Under the pieces are notes generated by a model. It did not search any database, was not told where the DNA came from, and worked only from the letters and a program-made list of their open reading frames with translations. The translations under genes and the position numbers were made by a program. From Patescibacteria group bacterium (lineage in GTDB: Bacteria; Patescibacteriota; Minisyncoccia; UBA9983), in NCBI GenBank assembly GCA_018895015.1, contig JAHIOX010000015.1, positions 11,533 to 75,532 of the forward strand: DNA of 64,000 nt, written 5' to 3'. Below, piece after piece: positions 4,662-63,992 of the stretch. Positions within the stretch are counted from its first letter, which is position 1. Every line of letters begins with the position of its first letter.

Positions 4662-5630
4662 TTAGCGGGGCAAGACAACAATTTCTTCTTCCAAATCTAT
4701 GTTGAATTTTTCTCTCACTTTTTGTTTGCAAATTTTAATGAGTTCCAACACGTCAGCCGCTCGCCCTTCCCCGATATTCACGATAAAATTCGCGTGCAAG
4801 TCCGAAATTTGGGCTCCGCCAATATTCATTCCCTTTAATCCGCATTGCTCTATCAAATATGCCGCTGGAAATTTCCCGGTCTTAATTTTTTCTTGAGGAA
4901 TTAATTTCAAAAACTCGTTTTTGTTCCGTAATCCGCCAATAACAATATTTTTAAATATACTCCCGATTGAAGGATGCGATGGAATCTTTCTTCTGCGATT
5001 CAATAAAATATTTTTAATTTCTTCTTTGCTTTTTTCTTTTCCGCCAGCCGGCGGAGCCTTTGCTAATTTAAATTCTATTTCTAAAATTACTTCGGCGTTG
5101 CCCAAATTTTTGAATCTGCTTCCGCGATAACAAAATTCGCATTCTTTATTTGAATACTTTTTTATCCGCCAGCCGGCGGAGCCAGCCTCATCCAAAACAG
5201 AAACGCTTTCCACGTTTTCAGATATTGAATGGCCGTATGCCCCGCAATTTCCGGCCACGCCTCCGCCAACTGTTCCGGGTATTCCAACGCCCCACTCAAA
5301 GCCAATGAAACCGGCATCAATGGATTTTATAATTAATTGGCTGAATAATACTCCCGCGCCAACATTCACGCTTGAATTTTCAATTTTTAATCCGCCGGCC
5401 GACGGACAATTTCCAATTTTTATCGCAACGCCTTCAAATCCTTCGTCACGAAATAAAATATTACTCCCGCCACCAAACACAAAATAAGGCAGGTTTTTGC
5501 CTTTCGCGAACTTAATCGCCTCAATAATTTCCTCCTTTGATTTCGCGACAACAAAATACCTCGCCGCCCCGCCGATCTTAAAACTGGAGTGATTTTTTAA
5601 TAGCTCGTTTTCTTTAATTTCCAATAACAT
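4662..5630 (-). CDS. murB: UDP-N-acetylenolpyruvoylglucosamine reductase
   Basis: FAD-binding MurB motifs (FKIGGAARYF...FVFGGGSNILF). Start set at ATG 5628-5630 (MLLEIKENELL). The longer ORF to 5804 would run through tRNA-Ile. Confidence 0.85.
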   Translation of the reverse strand: MLLEIKENELLKNHSSFKIGGAARYFVVAKSKEEIIEAIKFAKGKNLPYFVFGGGSNILFRDEGFEGVAIKIGNCPSAGGLKIENSSVNVGAGVLFSQLIIKSIDAGFIGFEWGVGIPGTVGGGVAGNCGAYGHSISENVESVSVLDEAGSAGWRIKKYSNKECEFCYRGSRFKNLGNAEVILEIEFKLAKAPPAGGKEKSKEEIKNILLNRRRKIPSHPSIGSIFKNIVIGGLRNKNEFLKLIPQEKIKTGKFPAAYLIEQCGLKGMNIGGAQISDLHANFIVNIGEGRAADVLELIKICKQKVREKFNIDLEEEIVVLPR

Positions 5631-5632
5631 TG

Positions 5633-5704
5633 TGGGCGTGGAAGGAATCGAACCTTCGACCCCGTTCTTATCAGGAACGTGCTCTACCACTGAGCCACAC
5701 GCCC
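5633..5704 (-). tRNA. tRNA-Ile (anticodon GAT)
   Basis: Reverse complement GGGCGTGTGGCTCAGTGGTAGAGCACGTTCCTGATAAGAACGGGGTCGAAGGTTCGATTCCTTCCACGCCCA. Cloverleaf with anticodon loop CTGATAA. No encoded CCA. Confidence 0.85.
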
Positions 5705-5934
5705 ATCCGTCAGCTGACGGATTCATTCTATAACAAAAAACCGCCCTATTCAAGAGGACGATTTTTTGATTTATAATATTTTTTCTTTTGTTCCGTTCGC
5801 CCATTTTTACCTCTTGAGTTTGAGGAATCTCAAAACAGCTCCGAGATCAACGCTTTATCCGCCTCATCGGCGGACCGACCTAGTCTTTTCTGTCCGCTAT
5901 GTCCGTAAAGGGCATAAAACGAAAGAAAAGATTG

Positions 5935-7452
<1,518 letters not shown>

Positions 7453-7592
7453 AAATGAACGGAACAAAAGAAAAAATATTATCTCGATTCTGGGACTTTA
7501 TGCCAGAATCGGAATGCACAAATGAATCATATTCATTTTTTAATGTTCAAGAAAATTGTACCTCTGTCTGGGTTTATTCAGTTTATATTTTT

Positions 7593-18721: not shown

Positions 18722-18830
18722 AAGACTGGCGGCTGGCTACTTTCCCCTTGCGAGTATCATCGCTACTACCACCTTTCACTTCCGTGTTCGGAATGGGAAC
18801 GGGTGGGACAATGGCGTCTAGCCACCAGAC
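18722..18830 (-). rRNA. rrf: 5S ribosomal RNA
   Basis: Reverse complement GTCTGGTGGCTAGACGCCATTGTCCCACCCGTTCCCATTCCGAACACGGAAGTGAAAGGTGGTAGTAGCGATGATACTCGCAAGGGGAAAGTAGCCAGCCGCCAGTC. Conserved CCGAACACGGAAG loop. Confidence 0.8.
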
Positions 18831-18869: not shown

Positions 18870-21958
<3,089 letters not shown>

Positions 21959-22191
21959 TTTCCTATTAGGAAATTAATAATTCTGAAATATAAACGTAAA
22001 AATACTTTAATTACCCATTATGTTTTCAAAGTTCTGGCATTTCTGTCTTTAAAAAATAAAAAATCCGCTTTTAGAAGCGGCTTAATCAAGCAAAAGTAGA
22101 ACAAATGCTACCCTTTTTTACGCTTCCAAAATATTCCTATTTTCTTTCTTATCATATCTTAATTTCATTATATATTCGCAAAACAAAAAGT

Positions 22192-54228: not shown

Positions 54229-54462
54229 TTAAATAAGATTAGTAAATCCTTCGGGAATGTTTTTTTCAAGGAACTCCTCGTAAACCATCAAGGTCATGTC
54301 GTTTATTTCCTCATCAGACATGCCATGGCGCATTTTTAGTTTTTTGACAAATTCAAGATACCATTCTTCTTTGGAGCTTACATACGATTGCTTCAAAAGT
54401 CGCTTTTTTATTTCTTCTTTAAACTCTTGCTTAATTTCCGATAAATTATCGCCTGATCCCAT
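54229..54462 (-). CDS. Small acidic hypothetical protein
   Basis: 77 aa. Strong SD (GGAGGTG) 5 nt upstream. Last gene of the tmk/ThyA-like operon. Confidence 0.4.
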   Translation of the reverse strand: MGSGDNLSEIKQEFKEEIKKRLLKQSYVSSKEEWYLEFVKKLKMRHGMSDEEINDMTLMVYEEFLEKNIPEGFTNLI

Positions 54463-54480: not shown

Positions 54481-55206
54481 TTATTCTAAAGTTTTAGCGA
54501 AAGACGCTTTATCCAAGAGAACATTTTCGTCAACAACAACTTTGTCTACATTTAGCGCGTTGACCAGTTCAAAATACTGGTCATAAATATGCAACCCGTC
54601 GCTATAAGCGATTAAATCGCCGTCAACTAAATTCAGGCCGTCCAGATGCGCGAGAACATATTCCTTAACCATCTGCAATCCGCCGAGATTTTCCGGTAAG
54701 CCGGCGAATAAATCCCACGAACGGAAAAAAACTGCCATATTTAATTTCCCGTTCACAACCTTGAAATCAATCACGCGCAAACAAGGTGGGTCGGGTAGGA
54801 AAATTGATTCTTTATCCCCGACAGAAATACAAGCCTGATTTGTGTTTCCGTTTGAGCTTTGCAATAAATCAATAACGCGAGGTAATTGCGGTTTTATATA
54901 GCTTCCGTAAGTATACTGTTCGTTTTTTTCCAGCTTATCCTCCATAAGATATCCCAGAAAATATTTTTCTATTTTTTCTTCGCTTGTGGGCGAAGGCCAC
55001 GGAGGCGGCACAATAGGCGCCAGCGGCCTTTTAGCGGGCTCTTTTATTTTCAGAACCACATAAGGCAGCTGTTTCCTTATCTGCCCCACATAACTACCGC
55101 CTTTTACCACAAAATCATAGCCCTGCATTACGCAAAGCCACATTACTTCCCGCCAAACATCATCTATTCTATTGCCTTCCACATAATTCGTCTTAAAATC
55201 TATCAT
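54481..55206 (-). CDS. Divergent thymidylate synthase (ThyA)-family protein: thymidylate synthase or pyrimidine-nucleotide hydroxymethylase-like
   Basis: The C-terminal half aligns with ThyA: catalytic Cys (DPPCLRV aligning with APCHAFF), FFRSWDLFAGLPEN (QRSCDVFLGLPFN), SDGLHIYDQY (GGDTHLYSNH). The N-terminal phosphate-binding motifs (RTGTGT, SRRI) are not conserved. Confidence 0.55.
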   Translation of the reverse strand: MIDFKTNYVEGNRIDDVWREVMWLCVMQGYDFVVKGGSYVGQIRKQLPYVVLKIKEPAKRPLAPIVPPPWPSPTSEEKIEKYFLGYLMEDKLEKNEQYTYGSYIKPQLPRVIDLLQSSNGNTNQACISVGDKESIFLPDPPCLRVIDFKVVNGKLNMAVFFRSWDLFAGLPENLGGLQMVKEYVLAHLDGLNLVDGDLIAYSDGLHIYDQYFELVNALNVDKVVVDENVLLDKASFAKTLE

Positions 55207-55871
55207 TATACTCTCCCTTCATAAAGAAAATTTCTTACTGCGCATACCACATCTTTCTGCACAACATCTTCATCGCGGCTGGCATCAACTGTAATCCAAT
55301 TTCCGTTCTGTCCGGCTAATTTCAAAAACCCGCTTCTCACTCTTTGATGAAACATGATGTCCTTTACATCAAATCTTGTAATTTCGCCAGCGTTTTTCCT
55401 ACGTTCCAGCCCAATCGCCGGATCTACATCTAAATAAATTATTAAATCCGGTTTAAGATTATTTGTCGCGATGTAATTCAGCTCATCAAAAATAGTTTTA
55501 TATCCTTCCCTCTGCGCGCCAATGATTTGGTACGCGAATGTTGAAGGGCTAAATCTGTCGCAAATGACATTTACGCCATTTTTAAGCGCTGGCCGAATAA
55601 CTTTCGCGCAATGTTCCGCGCGCACGGCGCAGAAAAGAAAAAGTTCCGCGAGCGTCGTTATGTGATTGCTTTTATCCATCAAAATCGCGCGAATCTCTTC
55701 GCCGACTTCCGTTCCGCCCGGCTCGCGAGTGAAAATTGAGTTGCCGATATTTTCTTTTTTCAGCTCCTCTATACAGGTGCTTTTTCCGCTTCCTTCGCCG
55801 CCCTCAATCACAATAAACTTTCCTCGTTCCGACATAAATAATCTCCTCTCTTTCTTTAATTTTATTGTCAA
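55206..55871 (-). CDS. tmk: Thymidylate kinase
   Basis: P-loop FIVIEGGEGSGKST, DRF-type motif region, LID region. 1-nt overlap with the downstream ThyA-like gene. Confidence 0.85.
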   Translation of the reverse strand: MTIKLKKERRLFMSERGKFIVIEGGEGSGKSTCIEELKKENIGNSIFTREPGGTEVGEEIRAILMDKSNHITTLAELFLFCAVRAEHCAKVIRPALKNGVNVICDRFSPSTFAYQIIGAQREGYKTIFDELNYIATNNLKPDLIIYLDVDPAIGLERRKNAGEITRFDVKDIMFHQRVRSGFLKLAGQNGNWITVDASRDEDVVQKDVVCAVRNFLYEGRV

Positions 55872-57107: not shown

Positions 57108-57217
57108 TTTAGCTTCCTTTCAAAAAAGCCCCTCCCGGGCTTATGCAATATTTATATCATACGCTTTTATAAAAAAAGGTCAACCCCGCCTGGCGGGGTC
57201 AAGTCCAAAAATAAAAT

Positions 57218-57253
57218 GCCCCGTTCGCGCGAACGCGAACGGGGCTTTCTTTA
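57218..57253. terminator. Strong bidirectional rho-independent terminator (12-bp perfect stem), preceded by two further GC hairpins (57130-57146, 57185-57199)
   Basis: gccccgttcgcg cgaa cgcgaacggggc then tttctttat on the plus strand; A/T-rich on the other side. Confidence 0.6.
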
Positions 57254-57751
57254 TCTAAGCAGAAGCCTTGGCTTGGCCGGCAAAGGCCTCACCGCAATTC
57301 CAAAATTTTCAACAAAATCTTTTAACTCTCTGCCCATCTCTTTTGTATAGGCAAAAAAAGTTAAGGTTTTTCTTTTTTTAATAACTTCTGACGCCAATTC
57401 TATAATATGCTTATCGTGCGTCAGAATTACAAAATCCGTAATTTCTTTATATCGTAAAAAACTTATTCCCATAATTGCCATTCGTGAATCAACCTTATCC
57501 TCCCGCTTTTCAGAATCCGCCAAAGAATCCATTTTCTGGCAGACAACAATTTCAAAGCCCAAATTGTTTACTTTTGGCAAACTATGATAGCTGCCAAATG
57601 GAACGAATATCGCGGCAAAATCCACCTCGCCTATTTCCAAAAACTGCTTCATTAATTCAGCAAAATCTAAACTCTCATTATGCTTTCTCATCTGGGAATC
57701 AACATTGTCGTAATCAATAAAAGCAATTAGTATCCTTCTTTTCTTGCTCAT
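57251..57751 (-). CDS. NYN-domain (LabA-like, PIN-fold) predicted ribonuclease
   Basis: NYN motifs IAFIDYDNV, AAIFVPFGSY, KVDSRMAIMGI, DFVILTHDKHIIELA, KTLTFFAY. Perfect SD AAGGAGGTGA 6 nt upstream. Confidence 0.55.
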   Translation of the reverse strand: MSKKRRILIAFIDYDNVDSQMRKHNESLDFAELMKQFLEIGEVDFAAIFVPFGSYHSLPKVNNLGFEIVVCQKMDSLADSEKREDKVDSRMAIMGISFLRYKEITDFVILTHDKHIIELASEVIKKRKTLTFFAYTKEMGRELKDFVENFGIAVRPLPAKPRLLLR

Positions 57752-57829
57752 CTTTTCACCTCCTTTATTCTGGAGTTAATAAAGGGCCGGGCGCTAGCGC
57801 GATTCACCGGCCCCTGTTTTTCCCGCAAG

Positions 57830-58978
57830 CTATTCCTTCCGCGACAAAGCATAACCTGTCGCAACATAAATCTTGCGACATACATCCAGAACAAACTCCT
57901 GATGCTCTTCCGGGACACTATCTGAAATCTTTTTGTCTTTCAAATAACCGCGATAAGTAGGTACCGCTACCCACTTACCTCTGTCGGCCTCTCGCCATGA
58001 CTTGAGTGAACCGGCGCCGTCTTCAACCCTAACAACCAAAAATGGGAACGCCCCTTTTTTATCCTTATTAAGGTCAACAATTTGGACAATACCGGCACCC
58101 TCGCCCCACCCATTGGGACGTTTTTCGTCGGGCGGTAGATAAAGGGTATAATACCCCTCTTTGCCGTCAGCGATAAGCCTTAATGGCAAGCCATGCCTGG
58201 CACGGATATCCGCGATTCGAGTTGCTTCTTCAGCGAGAGCCTTTTCAGCTTTCTCGCGAGAAAAACCAACGAACCGGTAGACAAGCGCGCGAAGCGCCTT
58301 AAAGATGCGCTTGTCAGCGCCTGACACCTGACCTTCGCGGCCTGGCATTTGAGAAAAAATGTGTAAAAGCACATAATGCCTGTCGCCATTGCGGAAATAA
58401 ACATGATCCGTAGACCATTTCTCGTTTTTTCTCCGGAACTCCTTATCTTCCGCATCTGGCACACGCCCGCGCCCCATCGCGAGTGTCCGGTTGAACATCA
58501 TAAGAACATCGTAGGGATTCCTCGGTTCCAGGTTATCAATCTCCGTGATAAATAAATCCACGGCAAATTGGTCCTGGACGCCCTTGGGTTGGCGTGCCAA
58601 AACATCGTTTATCCGGCTCTGCTCGGACAGAAGCTCCCTTAATTCACGAAATTGCGCGGTCAACTCAATCCCCTCCACCGACTGCAATTCCGCAATTCGC
58701 CGGCAGATTTTGAAATAATCTGCGGCAGACCCAAATACCTGCTCGCTTCTTTTTTTTGCCTCGGCCTTAACGGCCTCGGCGTCAAAATCTTCAGTGGCTT
58801 TCTTTCTCGCCACAAGCCCGTCAATATCCGCCTTGGGCTCTGGCTCGACCAACTTGTTTCCATTTCCGCCGACATTGGTTTTTGGCAGTTTTTCTTTAAT
58901 TTCAGCCAGCGCCGCGAACGGCGTCTGAACAACATTACCTTCACCAAAACTACATTTTAGCGTACTTTCTTTTGGCAT
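57830..58978 (-). CDS. Hypothetical protein encoded by a compositionally distinct (GC-rich) gene
   Basis: 382 aa, no recognised domain. Visibly higher GC than the flanking sequence. SD GGAGGTG 6 nt upstream. A GC-rich hairpin (57784-57815) separates it from the NYN gene. Confidence 0.45.
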   Translation of the reverse strand: MPKESTLKCSFGEGNVVQTPFAALAEIKEKLPKTNVGGNGNKLVEPEPKADIDGLVARKKATEDFDAEAVKAEAKKRSEQVFGSAADYFKICRRIAELQSVEGIELTAQFRELRELLSEQSRINDVLARQPKGVQDQFAVDLFITEIDNLEPRNPYDVLMMFNRTLAMGRGRVPDAEDKEFRRKNEKWSTDHVYFRNGDRHYVLLHIFSQMPGREGQVSGADKRIFKALRALVYRFVGFSREKAEKALAEEATRIADIRARHGLPLRLIADGKEGYYTLYLPPDEKRPNGWGEGAGIVQIVDLNKDKKGAFPFLVVRVEDGAGSLKSWREADRGKWVAVPTYRGYLKDKKISDSVPEEHQEFVLDVCRKIYVATGYALSRKE

Positions 58979-59095
58979 TTCACACCTCCAAAATTTTCAT
59001 TTTCAGAATTTTTTGAGAAAAATACAAGCGCAAAAAACCGGATTTCACCTCCTTTTTTATTTTTTAAGACTGCTTAATCTAAAAAGAATTATAAA

Positions 59096-59896
59096 CTATT
59101 TTATTTCGTATGTCAAGCTAACCGTAGTTGTTATTTTATTTTCACCAGCCGGGATTTCAGGCGCTGGCGCCGCTTCTCCCCCCATGCCAAACCCAGCCGT
59201 TTTCAAATTATATAAATACGGGCTGTCTCCGCCTGATTCAGAAAAGCTTACCAAGCGGACAATCTTTACGCCTAAATCTTTTGCAAGCTGAGCTGATTTT
59301 TCCTTCGCGTCAATAATGGCCTTCTGCCTTGCTTCTCTTTTTGGAGCCTCTTCATCGTCAACAGTAAAATAAATTCCGCCGACCTGATTGGCTCCTGCCA
59401 GCGCCGCGCCAGACAAAATTTTTCCGGTTTCATCAATTTTCCTGATTTTTATCTCTAGAGTCTGCGTTACCGTATATCCTCGGAAAACTCTGCCTTGCTC
59501 TTCAAGATAATCGTAGCGCGGATAAATATTATAATTTGTTGTCTTAATATCTTTATCCTCAATTGATGACCCTTTCAAAAAGGCAATAATTTTATTGATG
59601 TCTTCTGTCGCTTTGTTTTGAGCTTCAGCGACTGAAAGCGCTTCTTTTTCAACCGAAATTGAAATTTTCGCGATATCCGGTTTTGTAAAAATTTCCCCCT
59701 TGCCGCTGACGGTTATGGTGTTTACCGGAATAATATCCTGGCCGATATATTTTCTTTGCTCAATTTCATTGAAAGATTTCGCGATAAAAAAAATGACCAG
59801 CACGGCTAAAAAAACGGAAGCCAGCGCGGCCATTATTTTTTTTAATTTAATAATGGAAGCCTTGTTTCCTTCAGATAAAAAATTTTCGTTAAACAT
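59096..59896 (-). CDS. SIMPL/DUF541-family periplasmic protein (26-kDa periplasmic immunogenic protein-like)
   Basis: N-terminal TM anchor plus the SIMPL domain pattern (NTITVSGKGE...DIAKISISVE...YTVTQTLEIKIR). Confidence 0.65.
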   Translation of the reverse strand: MFNENFLSEGNKASIIKLKKIMAALASVFLAVLVIFFIAKSFNEIEQRKYIGQDIIPVNTITVSGKGEIFTKPDIAKISISVEKEALSVAEAQNKATEDINKIIAFLKGSSIEDKDIKTTNYNIYPRYDYLEEQGRVFRGYTVTQTLEIKIRKIDETGKILSGAALAGANQVGGIYFTVDDEEAPKREARQKAIIDAKEKSAQLAKDLGVKIVRLVSFSESGGDSPYLYNLKTAGFGMGGEAAPAPEIPAGENKITTTVSLTYEIK

Positions 59897-59938
59897 ATTA
59901 GTATATTTAAATAATAATTTATAAACCAGCTAAATTTT

Positions 59939-60009
59939 TCGGGCTGCGGAGACTCGAACTCCAACTAAATCCTCCCGAAGGACTCGTGCTGCCATTACAC
60001 TACAGCCCG
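59939..60009 (-). tRNA. tRNA-Pro (anticodon CGG)
   Basis: Reverse complement CGGGCTGTAGTGTAATGGCAGCACGAGTCCTTCGGGAGGATTTAGTTGGAGTTCGAGTCTCCGCAGCCCGA. Anticodon loop TTCGGGA. Confidence 0.7.
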
Positions 60010-60033
60010 ATAGTGTAGGACCTCTCGCAACAA

Positions 60034-61350: not shown

Positions 61351-61424
61351 TGGGTGCCTAGAGGGAATCGAACCCTCGATATCAGTTCCACAAACTGAAG
61401 TTTTGCCACTAAACTATAGGCACC
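61351..61424 (-). tRNA. tRNA-His (anticodon GTG), with encoded G-1 and CCA
   Basis: Reverse complement G-GTGCCTATAGTTTAGTGGCAAAACTTCAGTTTGTGGAACTGATATCGAGGGTTCGATTCCCTCTAGGCACC-CA. Anticodon loop TTGTGGA. Extra 5' G pairs with the discriminator C. Confidence 0.85.
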
Positions 61425-62614: not shown

Positions 62615-62701
62615 TGGTGCGCGGGAGAGGATTTGAACCTCCACGCCCTTGCGGACACCAGCCCCTCAAGCTGGCCTGTCTACCAATTTCAGCACCCGCG
62701 C
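62615..62701 (-). tRNA. tRNA-Leu (anticodon GAG), type II with long variable arm, CCA encoded
   Basis: Reverse complement GCGCGGGTGCTGAAATTGGTAGACAGGCCAGCTTGAGGGGCTGGTGTCCGCAAGGGCGTGGAGGTTCAAATCCTCTCCCGCGCACCA. Confidence 0.8.
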
Positions 62702-63910: not shown

Positions 63911-63918
63911 ATTTTTTG

Positions 63919-63992
63919 TGGACGATGCAGGATTCGAACCTGCGGCCTTCTCGGTGTAAACGAGACGCTCTAACCAACTGAGCTAATCGTCC
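63919..63992 (-). tRNA. tRNA-Val (anticodon TAC)
   Basis: Reverse complement GGACGATTAGCTCAGTTGGTTAGAGCGTCTCGTTTACACCGAGAAGGCCGCAGGTTCGAATCCTGCATCGTCCA. Anticodon loop TTTACAC. Confidence 0.85.

Follow-up and report, generated by a model that had tools for sequence, protein, structure and literature searches.

A NYN-domain protein and its variable, GC-rich partner in Patescibacteria: conserved pairing and recurrent allelic replacement

What could tie a GC-rich gene of no recognisable family to the gene of a small predicted nuclease, and what is the role of perfect Shine-Dalgarno (SD)-like boxes in a genome whose 16S rRNA lacks the anti-SD sequence? Both questions are raised by a 64,000-nt stretch of DNA from a Patescibacteria group bacterium (contig JAHIOX010000015.1), which at its full length is called the window below. 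On its minus strand lie a 382-aa open reading frame (ORF), here named gene X, and an ORF for a protein with a NYN domain, so that X is transcribed first and NYN second. An earlier reading made from the letters alone (the sequence-only reading) had placed both ORFs correctly, had taken the pair for a compositionally foreign and horizontally acquired module, and had likened it to toxin-antitoxin (TA) or defence systems. The NCBI entries identical to the two window proteins belong to a Patescibacteria group bacterium (locus tag KJ934_03045); the group in question consists of tiny bacteria from groundwater, and the host is uncultivated. The explanation that we favour, tentatively, is a two-component RNase module in which an abundant and variable X gates or targets a conserved NYN protein, probably in a conflict role.

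Pairing of the two genes and the nature of their products

Loci for comparison were gathered from homologues of X and, reciprocally, from homologues of the NYN protein; these come from Logan, ENA or JGI metagenome assemblies as short contigs of 1-10 kb and are cited by handles such as L001. X and NYN were adjacent in 16 of 16 informative distinct loci, in four contexts and two gene orders, and X lay directly upstream in every NYN-seeded locus. The X-NYN pair is followed by secE-nusG-rplK (with tRNA-Pro and SIMPL in front), by secD-secF or by a NUDIX gene, and in the fourth context (L010) the order is reversed to NYN-X-ftsH. The spacer between the genes, hairpin included, measures 63-94 nt across loci and 78 nt in the window, and the identities of X and of NYN to the window proteins rise together (Spearman 0.85, p 0.004, n=9). 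The operonic linkage that had been proposed thus stands as that of a true functional pair, conserved elsewhere. The pairing is obligate and confined to some Patescibacteria, to which all traced examples of X belong. In the window the module is single-copy and the order of transcription is SIMPL, X, NYN, secE, nusG, rplK, tmk, thyA; Pfam confirmed these neighbours, including the downstream position of secE, nusG and rplK given by the sequence-only reading.

A conserved string of tRNA genes stands upstream of the module, namely Pro-CGG (59938-60010), His-GTG (61352-61423), Leu-GAG (62615-62701) and Val-TAC (63918-63992), with small unannotated ORFs interleaved among them. The tRNA-Pro gene comes immediately before SIMPL-X, and directly before X in L017, where SIMPL is absent. 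Integration at a tRNA gene was considered, as tRNA-Pro is upstream in several loci, but was rejected: no att-like repeats were found at the module, and no integrase.

X is a soluble, basic protein (isoelectric point 8.8; Arg 8.4%), and the window protein has neither a transmembrane segment nor a signal peptide; members of the family are 340-461 aa long. The claim that it contains no recognisable domain holds. No Pfam, NCBIfam, PHROG or PADLOC model matched it, a housekeeping family included (best PHROG only E 0.11), no Pfam family was matched consistently by 36 family members, and the best sequence or profile matches in the PDB (E 0.01-0.024) were judged spurious. A word-indexed search of 5.8 billion proteins found 9 relatives, a second search of that set with a profile, bounded by a word-index cap, brought no advance, and an exhaustive HMMER scan of 1.84 billion representatives yielded 32 clusters; the family was absent from the matches of a motif scan of GTDB representative genomes with two alignments, and a JGI scan using X motifs yielded nothing.

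The AlphaFold model of X, built on a 36-sequence alignment, is confident (predicted local distance difference test 83.4, predicted TM-score 0.70). It predicts a disordered stretch at residues 1-62, a helical domain at 67-185, a beta-hairpin at 192-205, a 41-residue helix at 220-260, a beta-sheet at 275-338 and a C-terminal helix at 357-379. Fold searches recovered no relative among solved structures (Foldseek against PDB, best E 0.11, TM-score at most 0.2) or viral ones (BFVD, best E 9e-3, TM-score 0.12). In the same PDB and BFVD searches X showed no likeness to pilins, S-layer or capsid proteins; the fold searches matched no known RNA-binding fold, and Pfam, family scans and fold search detected no DNA-binding domain. 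As modelled, X represents a new family with a novel fold that has no known relative. Conserved motifs are GRGR (167-170), SGADKRIF (219-226), EGAG (292-295) and DGAGS (320-324), and R170, Y277 and G323 are invariant in the family. Because conservation falls on Gly, Arg and Tyr and no catalytic-type triad is conserved, X looks non-enzymatic.

The downstream gene had been described as NYN/LabA-like, and this assignment was upheld. Its product passes PF01936 above the gathering score (E 9e-7; 29.9 bits against a cutoff of 24.2; profile positions 5-140 of 145), and in a sequence-profile comparison a profile of 14 NYN partners matches the LabA-like NYN structure 2qip_A over residues 5-154 (E 2.4e-4). 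D13, N16, D85 and D113 are invariant among the 14 partners, D15 and D88 are at least 90% conserved, and a THDKH motif stands in place of the canonical SGDxDF. NYN domains have four conserved acidic metal-binding residues and form one group of the PIN-like superfamily (PMC5499597); the protein studied here belongs to that superfamily, but not to the VapC group. It is a NYN protein in which several acidic residues are conserved, and metal-dependent endoribonuclease activity is predicted for it. At E<=1 Pfam reported only PF01936, with no match to PF05991 (YacP). In L010 (145-1284), which represents one distant subclade, the NYN domain lies within a 379-aa, multi-domain protein with extra N- and C-terminal regions; its Pfam match is below threshold (E 1.2e-3), yet the invariant residues align.

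Like the LabA-like NYN proteins (PF01936/COG1432; 2qip), to which the domain and profile matches assign it, the protein keeps acidic residues where beta-1 and beta-4 end and in the helix. It differs from them in the THDKH motif and in forming a subfamily that occurs in few Patescibacteria and is always X-linked. As in fusions of NYN with OST-HTH (LOTUS) domains (PMC5499597), the NYN of the module appears to depend on a second part for specificity; here, however, the domain is a bare 166 aa and the partner is a separate 340-460-aa protein that resembles neither OST-HTH nor another known domain.

Allelic replacement and GC excess of gene X

Comparison with the nearly identical locus L001 showed how sharply X departs from its surroundings. 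Protein identity to the window is 100% for SecE and NusG, 99% for SIMPL and 98% for L11, and falls to 76% for X and 82% for NYN. At the nucleotide level the backbone is 96-100% identical and X only 61-74%, with the drop, and the upstream recombination breakpoint, at about 59025 in the X leader; an island of 91% nucleotide identity remains at X residues 266-299, and NYN is a patchwork. Synonymous divergence (dS) of X in this pair is 1.80 and nonsynonymous divergence (dN) 0.18 (dN/dS 0.10), compared with dS of 0.06-0.18 for SIMPL, secE, nusG and rplK. As L017 shows, a nucleotide identity of about 74% corresponds to a whole-genome distance, and the X allele therefore came from a lineage about as distant. 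A second pair (L015 and L020, Hainich groundwater), independent of the first in that it comes from another subclade and another site, gave the same contrast: X has dS 0.96 and 74% amino-acid identity, whereas NYN, secE, nusG and rplK have dS 0.009-0.026 and NYN is 99% identical.

The divergent X alleles are under purifying selection (dN/dS 0.10-0.17). Their synonymous changes are blocky, with a run of 35 unchanged codons (permutation p<1e-4); L005 and L015 differ as an intragenic mosaic, with dS 0.21 in the 5′ half of X and 1.59 in the 3′ half; and four X alleles found on the window-type lineage are 69-76% identical to one another. X is a recurrent hotspot of allelic replacement, where lineages pass alleles to one another through homologous recombination. 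Given saturated dS, low dN/dS and blocky changes, accelerated protein evolution or uniform hypermutation was rejected as a cause. A diversity-generating retroelement or shufflon was also rejected, as neither template/variable repeats nor inverted repeats were found and the variation extends over the whole gene.

It is highly unlikely that this hypervariability is an artefact of chimeric contigs or mis-binned strains, with X an orphan gene beside an unrelated NYN. The comparison loci are all short metagenome contigs, and strain co-assembly can produce mosaics. However, the contrast recurs in two unrelated subclades from different projects and samples, the divergent alleles are under purifying selection, and the two genes stay together in all informative loci; chimerism, moreover, only shuffles existing alleles and cannot create alleles with saturated dS.

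Also in the comparison with L001, thyA (54481-55206) is partly affected (dS 0.43). Other lineages have a dCMP deaminase in place of tmk and a ThyA-like protein that is just 25-30% identical.

We then consider the composition on which the idea of a foreign module had rested. X is indeed GC-rich in AT-rich surroundings, and the composition is not uniform: its GC content is 49.6%, against 40.7% for the window and 36.1% for NYN. Among 1149-nt segments of the window (standard deviation 3.6%), 2.5% reach the GC of X, and besides X these fall only in the 16S and 23S rRNA genes; X has the highest GC of all real protein-coding genes in the window. Because the GC of NYN is below the window mean, the pair is not foreign as a unit, contrary to the sequence-only reading. 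Nor can horizontal acquisition be read from composition. In nearly every lineage, even at 25% protein identity, the GC of X exceeds that of its flanks (X/flank 0.50/0.40 in L001, 0.53/0.40 in L003, 0.57/0.44 in L006 and 0.51/0.37 in L013), and since homologues in other genomes share the excess, it is a family trait and no sign of recent acquisition. Recent horizontal acquisition was rejected on these grounds, the locus being also syntenic and without mobile-element genes nearby. A phage origin was rejected as well, there being no IMG/VR relative, no BFVD fold match and only the weak PHROG hit.

The excess of 9.2 points in the window divides into about 5.4 points from amino-acid composition (Arg 8.4% vs 4.3%, Ile 4.5% vs 9.0%) and about 3.8 points from synonymous sites. 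A preference for C over U is a mark of translational selection. The synonymous shift of X is instead general, with G over A (z 2.2) and CGN and CTN codons preferred, not C over U, which leaves codon optimisation unsupported as the cause. Recombination is reported to be consistently associated with higher GC in bacteria (PMC4450053), and a recombination-linked rise in GC is a plausible source of the synonymous part of the excess. X may thus offer a concrete case that ties a gene-specific GC excess to recurrent recombination.

Expression signals and SD-like boxes

The features of the module are collected in Table 1. The X promoter agrees with the sigma-70 consensus at 12 of 12 positions and sits inside the 3′ end of the SIMPL gene; an identical promoter precedes X in L001, L002, L011 and L022, and one with a single mismatch in L005 and L010. 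A conserved box AAAGGAGGTGA in the leader lies 60-135 nt before the X ATG and is shared by the window and nine related loci (L001, L002, L003, L010, L013, L015, L017, L020 and, via identity to L015, L018). Direct inspection of the sequences of related loci showed no start codon at SD distance after this box, and a leader peptide behind it was rejected for that reason.

Table 1. Coordinates of the X-NYN module and its signals in the window
Feature	Position	Strand	Description
Gene X	57830..58978	-	soluble basic protein of 382 aa, new family, GC-rich, allelic-replacement hotspot
NYN gene	57251..57751	-	LabA-like, PIN-fold, predicted metal-dependent endoribonuclease, 166 aa
X promoter, perfect consensus sigma-70	59088..59116	-	TTGACA 59116-59111, 17-nt spacer, TATAAT 59093-59088
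X 5′ leader, ~100 nt	58979..59087	-	non-initiating SD-like box AAAGGAGGTGA at 59045-59055
SD-like box of X, GGAGGTG	58983..58989	-	4 nt before X start codon
SD-like box of NYN, AAGGAGGTGA	57756..57765	-	4 nt before NYN start codon; best SD match in window
X/NYN intergenic GC-rich hairpin	57784..57814	-	GGGGCCGG...CCGGCCC, then TTTATTAA
Tandem intrinsic terminators ending X-NYN	57180..57245	-	T1 57245-57218, T2 57202-57180

The GC hairpin that had been noticed between the genes is present, and a strong hairpin occupies this position in every locus, with stem sequences that differ between clades and a clear T-run behind it in L003, L004 and L013. It probably acts as a partial terminator or a stabiliser of the 3′ end, which would keep X expression higher than that of NYN. 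The terminator cluster reported before secE is present too, as two tandem hairpins after NYN and a third in the secE leader. T1 has a 12-bp stem followed by ATTTTATTTT; T2 is followed by CCTTTTTTTA and overlaps the -35 element of the secE promoter. Every locus examined has a strong terminator after NYN. Taken together, promoter, leader, intergenic hairpin and terminators point to a large excess of X over NYN. Rfam returned nothing relevant in the region, and an RNA element inside it was rejected on that basis.

The third hairpin, terminator-like and with a T-run (AAGCCCGGGAGGGGCTTTTTT), lies at 57122-57142 (minus strand), downstream of the secE promoter (57183-57156) and ahead of the secE ATG (57107). 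It is kept in L001, L002, L005, L011 and L015, with changes in the loop, and could be a leader attenuator, possibly serving NusG-dependent autoregulation of the secE-nusG operon.

The leader box recalls the STAB-SD, a 5′ mRNA stabiliser of B. thuringiensis cry3A (Agaisse and Lereclus 1996, as cited in PMC7509114). The likeness is that a strongly expressed gene has a perfect SD-like sequence in its leader, well ahead of the start codon, and that no ORF follows this sequence. The STAB-SD, however, pairs with the anti-SD of 16S rRNA, and since the 16S rRNA of the window genome has none, this mechanism is doubtful for the X leader.

Signals of very high expression (the consensus promoter, the STAB-SD-like box and the 3′ hairpin) would also suit an abundant structural, nucleoid or host-interaction protein whose diversity stems from exposure to phages or hosts, and antigen-like proteins typically show such a picture, with deeply diverged alleles on one and the same backbone. 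NYN would then be linked only as a processor or regulator of X mRNA, with the hairpin and SD-like boxes as cis-elements. We regard this as unlikely: X lacks a signal peptide or transmembrane segment and resembles no pilin, S-layer or capsid protein, and mRNA processing alone hardly accounts for strict pairing in four contexts, one of them with the genes in reverse order.

The sequence-only reading had described perfect SD sites six nucleotides before both start codons. The boxes are there, but the spacing was misjudged: they read GGAGGTG-N4-ATG for X and AAGGAGGTGA-N4-ATG for NYN, and N6 or N7 is reached only when counting from the GGAGG core. Nothing in the window matches AAGGAGGTGA better than the boxes of NYN (10/10) and X (7/10), and GGAGG occurs at SD distance in only about 5 of about 57 window genes. 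Across loci, a box of at least 5 nt precedes X or NYN in 17 of 21 cases and other genes in 17 of 56 (Fisher p 9e-5).

These sites are more puzzling than earlier assumed because the host 16S rRNA lacks an anti-SD. The 16S gene (5935-7454, minus; 3′ end near 5946) ends in ...GTGCGTGGAT, followed by TAATTTAAACC and not by CACCTCCTT, and CACCTCCT occurs nowhere on the rRNA strand in the window. About half of Parcubacteria have lost the anti-SD, a group that overlaps the one lacking uL1 (PMC9297842), and a 16S 3′ end without CCTCCT fits this anti-SD-lacking subgroup. In the window rplK (L11; 55835-56365) is followed directly by tmk, with no rplA (uL1) at its canonical position, which is consistent with the uL1-lacking Candidate Phyla Radiation (CPR) group that overlaps anti-SD loss. 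As to a possible avoidance of the motif within host coding sequences, GGAGG occurs 44 times against 63.6+-6.1 expected (z -3.2), but the longer GGAGGT and GAGGTG are not depleted. The module nevertheless keeps three perfect SD-like boxes.

One conceivable role for them is RNA surveillance, in which X would bind SD-like purine boxes (AAGGAGGUGA) and NYN would cut the RNA that carries them, marking SD-bearing transcripts as foreign. Such RNA would come from phages, the host bacterium or incoming DNA, and the three boxes on the module's own mRNA would provide negative autoregulation. We consider this very unlikely; if true, it would be a self/non-self discrimination resting on a lost translation signal.

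Further observations concern the SD-bearing and rRNA genes. A 77-aa ORF (54229-54462, minus), one of very few SD-bearing window genes, has a perfect SD-like box (GGAGGTG) and no significant Pfam match, and an indel removes it from the near-identical L001. The 16S gene is unlinked from 23S (18880-21968) and 5S (18724-18829), with about 11 kb of protein-coding genes between, and the 23S match is 3089 nt long where the model has 2925 nt, a hint of insertions in the gene. The longest ORF call in the window (380 aa, 4662-5804, minus) overlaps a tRNA gene (5633-5704), a mechanical artefact of ORF calling, so the true start of this ORF is downstream of the tRNA.

Weighing the possible roles

In the two-component RNase module that we tentatively favour, the NYN protein would be the conserved catalytic effector, a metal-dependent endoribonuclease, and X its partner, a soluble and basic protein of novel fold and without enzymatic activity. 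X would reach a large excess by means of its own consensus promoter, its long leader and the hairpin ahead of NYN acting as attenuator or stabiliser, and would bind NYN to gate or direct its activity; the physical interaction and the direction of control are presumed. Its alleles change hands between strains again and again and, kept by purifying selection, form lineages of deep divergence. The conflict role, anti-phage/abortive-infection-like or toxin-antitoxin-like, would make X a variable sensor or inhibitor and lead to RNA cutting once NYN is released or activated. Such a role appears the most likely because both swapping and purifying selection act on X alleles, whereas NYN may remain identical. 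When deep alleles move between identical backbones, the gene usually lies at a host-parasite interface. Strain-level variability, a trait of defence loci, is found here: X has dS of 1.80 and 0.96, against 0.01-0.18 for flanking genes.

Several observations weigh against this explanation. In the loci examined there are no integrase, transposase or phage genes around the module, which occupies a conserved syntenic site amid housekeeping genes, and IMG/VR viral contigs contain no X-NYN relative. No family of PADLOC-DB v2 matched X or NYN at E<=1, and the second Asp of SGDxDF, the fourth canonical acidic residue, is His115 in most NYN members, Asp being kept in L006. Defence genes do not usually have expression signals as strong as these. 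The divergence of X alleles is spread across the whole protein, with no single specificity region, and part of the fine-scale mosaicism could come from chimeric metagenome assembly. Finally, tmk (55206-55871) is a second replaced block relative to L001 (72-85% nucleotide identity, dS 1.02); with a housekeeping gene also replaced, recombination in these populations is not exclusive to X.

Comparison with catalogued systems leads to a similar balance. PADLOC, Pfam, NCBIfam and PHROGs matched no known system for the pair, as the sequence-only reading had said. Two-gene sensor-nuclease anti-phage systems of the PADLOC and DefenseFinder catalogues likewise combine a conserved nuclease with a variable partner; unlike them, the module matches no PADLOC model, has no defence island or mobile elements nearby (its neighbours across loci are SIMPL, tRNAs, secE, nusG, rplK, secD/F, NUDIX and ftsH) and bears signals of strong X expression. 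Type I restriction-modification hsdS loci also present deeply diverged, recombining alleles in otherwise identical strains, but variation of X is gene-wide and not limited to a target-recognition domain. The partner family is wholly new, and the module type, a nuclease with a partner, is already known.

The suggestion of a toxin-antitoxin-like or defence-like role remains the best guess in its general form, although no catalogued system matched and the classical type II arrangement is disfavoured. That arrangement, with NYN as a PIN-like toxin and X as a labile, DNA-binding, autoregulating antitoxin, is quite improbable. PIN-like toxins are the commonest TA toxins, and as in VapBC the module has two genes, an upstream non-enzymatic partner that could serve as inhibitor, probably produced in excess, and a downstream PIN-superfamily nuclease. 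However, at 340-460 aa X is four to five times the size of an antitoxin (about 70-100 aa) and has no detected DNA-binding domain; the genes are 63-94 nt apart with a hairpin between, neither overlapping nor translationally coupled; and the window contains one copy of the module only, at a fixed syntenic position. In L010 the order is reversed and the NYN protein is multi-domain. X also diversifies without matching change in NYN: with X 74% and NYN 99% identical between L015 and L020, the co-variation expected of an immunity pair is absent.

A housekeeping role in RNA processing or decay is a real possibility, though a rather doubtful one. X would then be an abundant RNA-binding adaptor that lends a bare NYN its specificity, much as OST-HTH domains may do in NYN fusions, with rRNA, tRNA or mRNA as substrate in a lineage with unusual ribosomes. 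The module adjoins secE-nusG-rplK and tRNA genes in many lineages, X is basic and Arg-rich with a GRGR motif that includes an invariant Arg, and the expression signals are strong. A parallel is Rae1/YacP (PF05991), a ribosome-associated NYN-group endoribonuclease of B. subtilis, whose gene lies just upstream of sigH-rpmG-secE-nusG, so that in both cases a small NYN-group protein is encoded immediately upstream of the secE-nusG-rplK cluster. Yet PF05991 finds no match here, Rae1 is not known to have an X-like partner, and in other lineages X-NYN adjoins secD/F, NUDIX or ftsH. Gene neighbourhoods tie bacterial NYN genes to tRNA/rRNA processing, and their specificity is ascribed to extra domains (PMC5499597). 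For such a function, however, the family is extremely rare, X is unlike any known RNA-binding fold, and deeply diverged alleles in near-identical strains are unexpected of a core RNA-processing factor.

Patescibacteria, or CPR, account for a large part of bacterial diversity, and many of the proteins they encode are uncharacterised; to our knowledge, few defence or RNA-decay systems have been recognised in them. In X, a population-genetic signature of the kind seen at host-parasite interfaces is linked to a predicted RNase and to unusually strong expression signals. If the module is defensive or toxin-like, it would add a CPR-specific class with a NYN effector; if it is a housekeeping module, it would reveal a lineage-specific RNA-processing factor in organisms with aberrant ribosomes.

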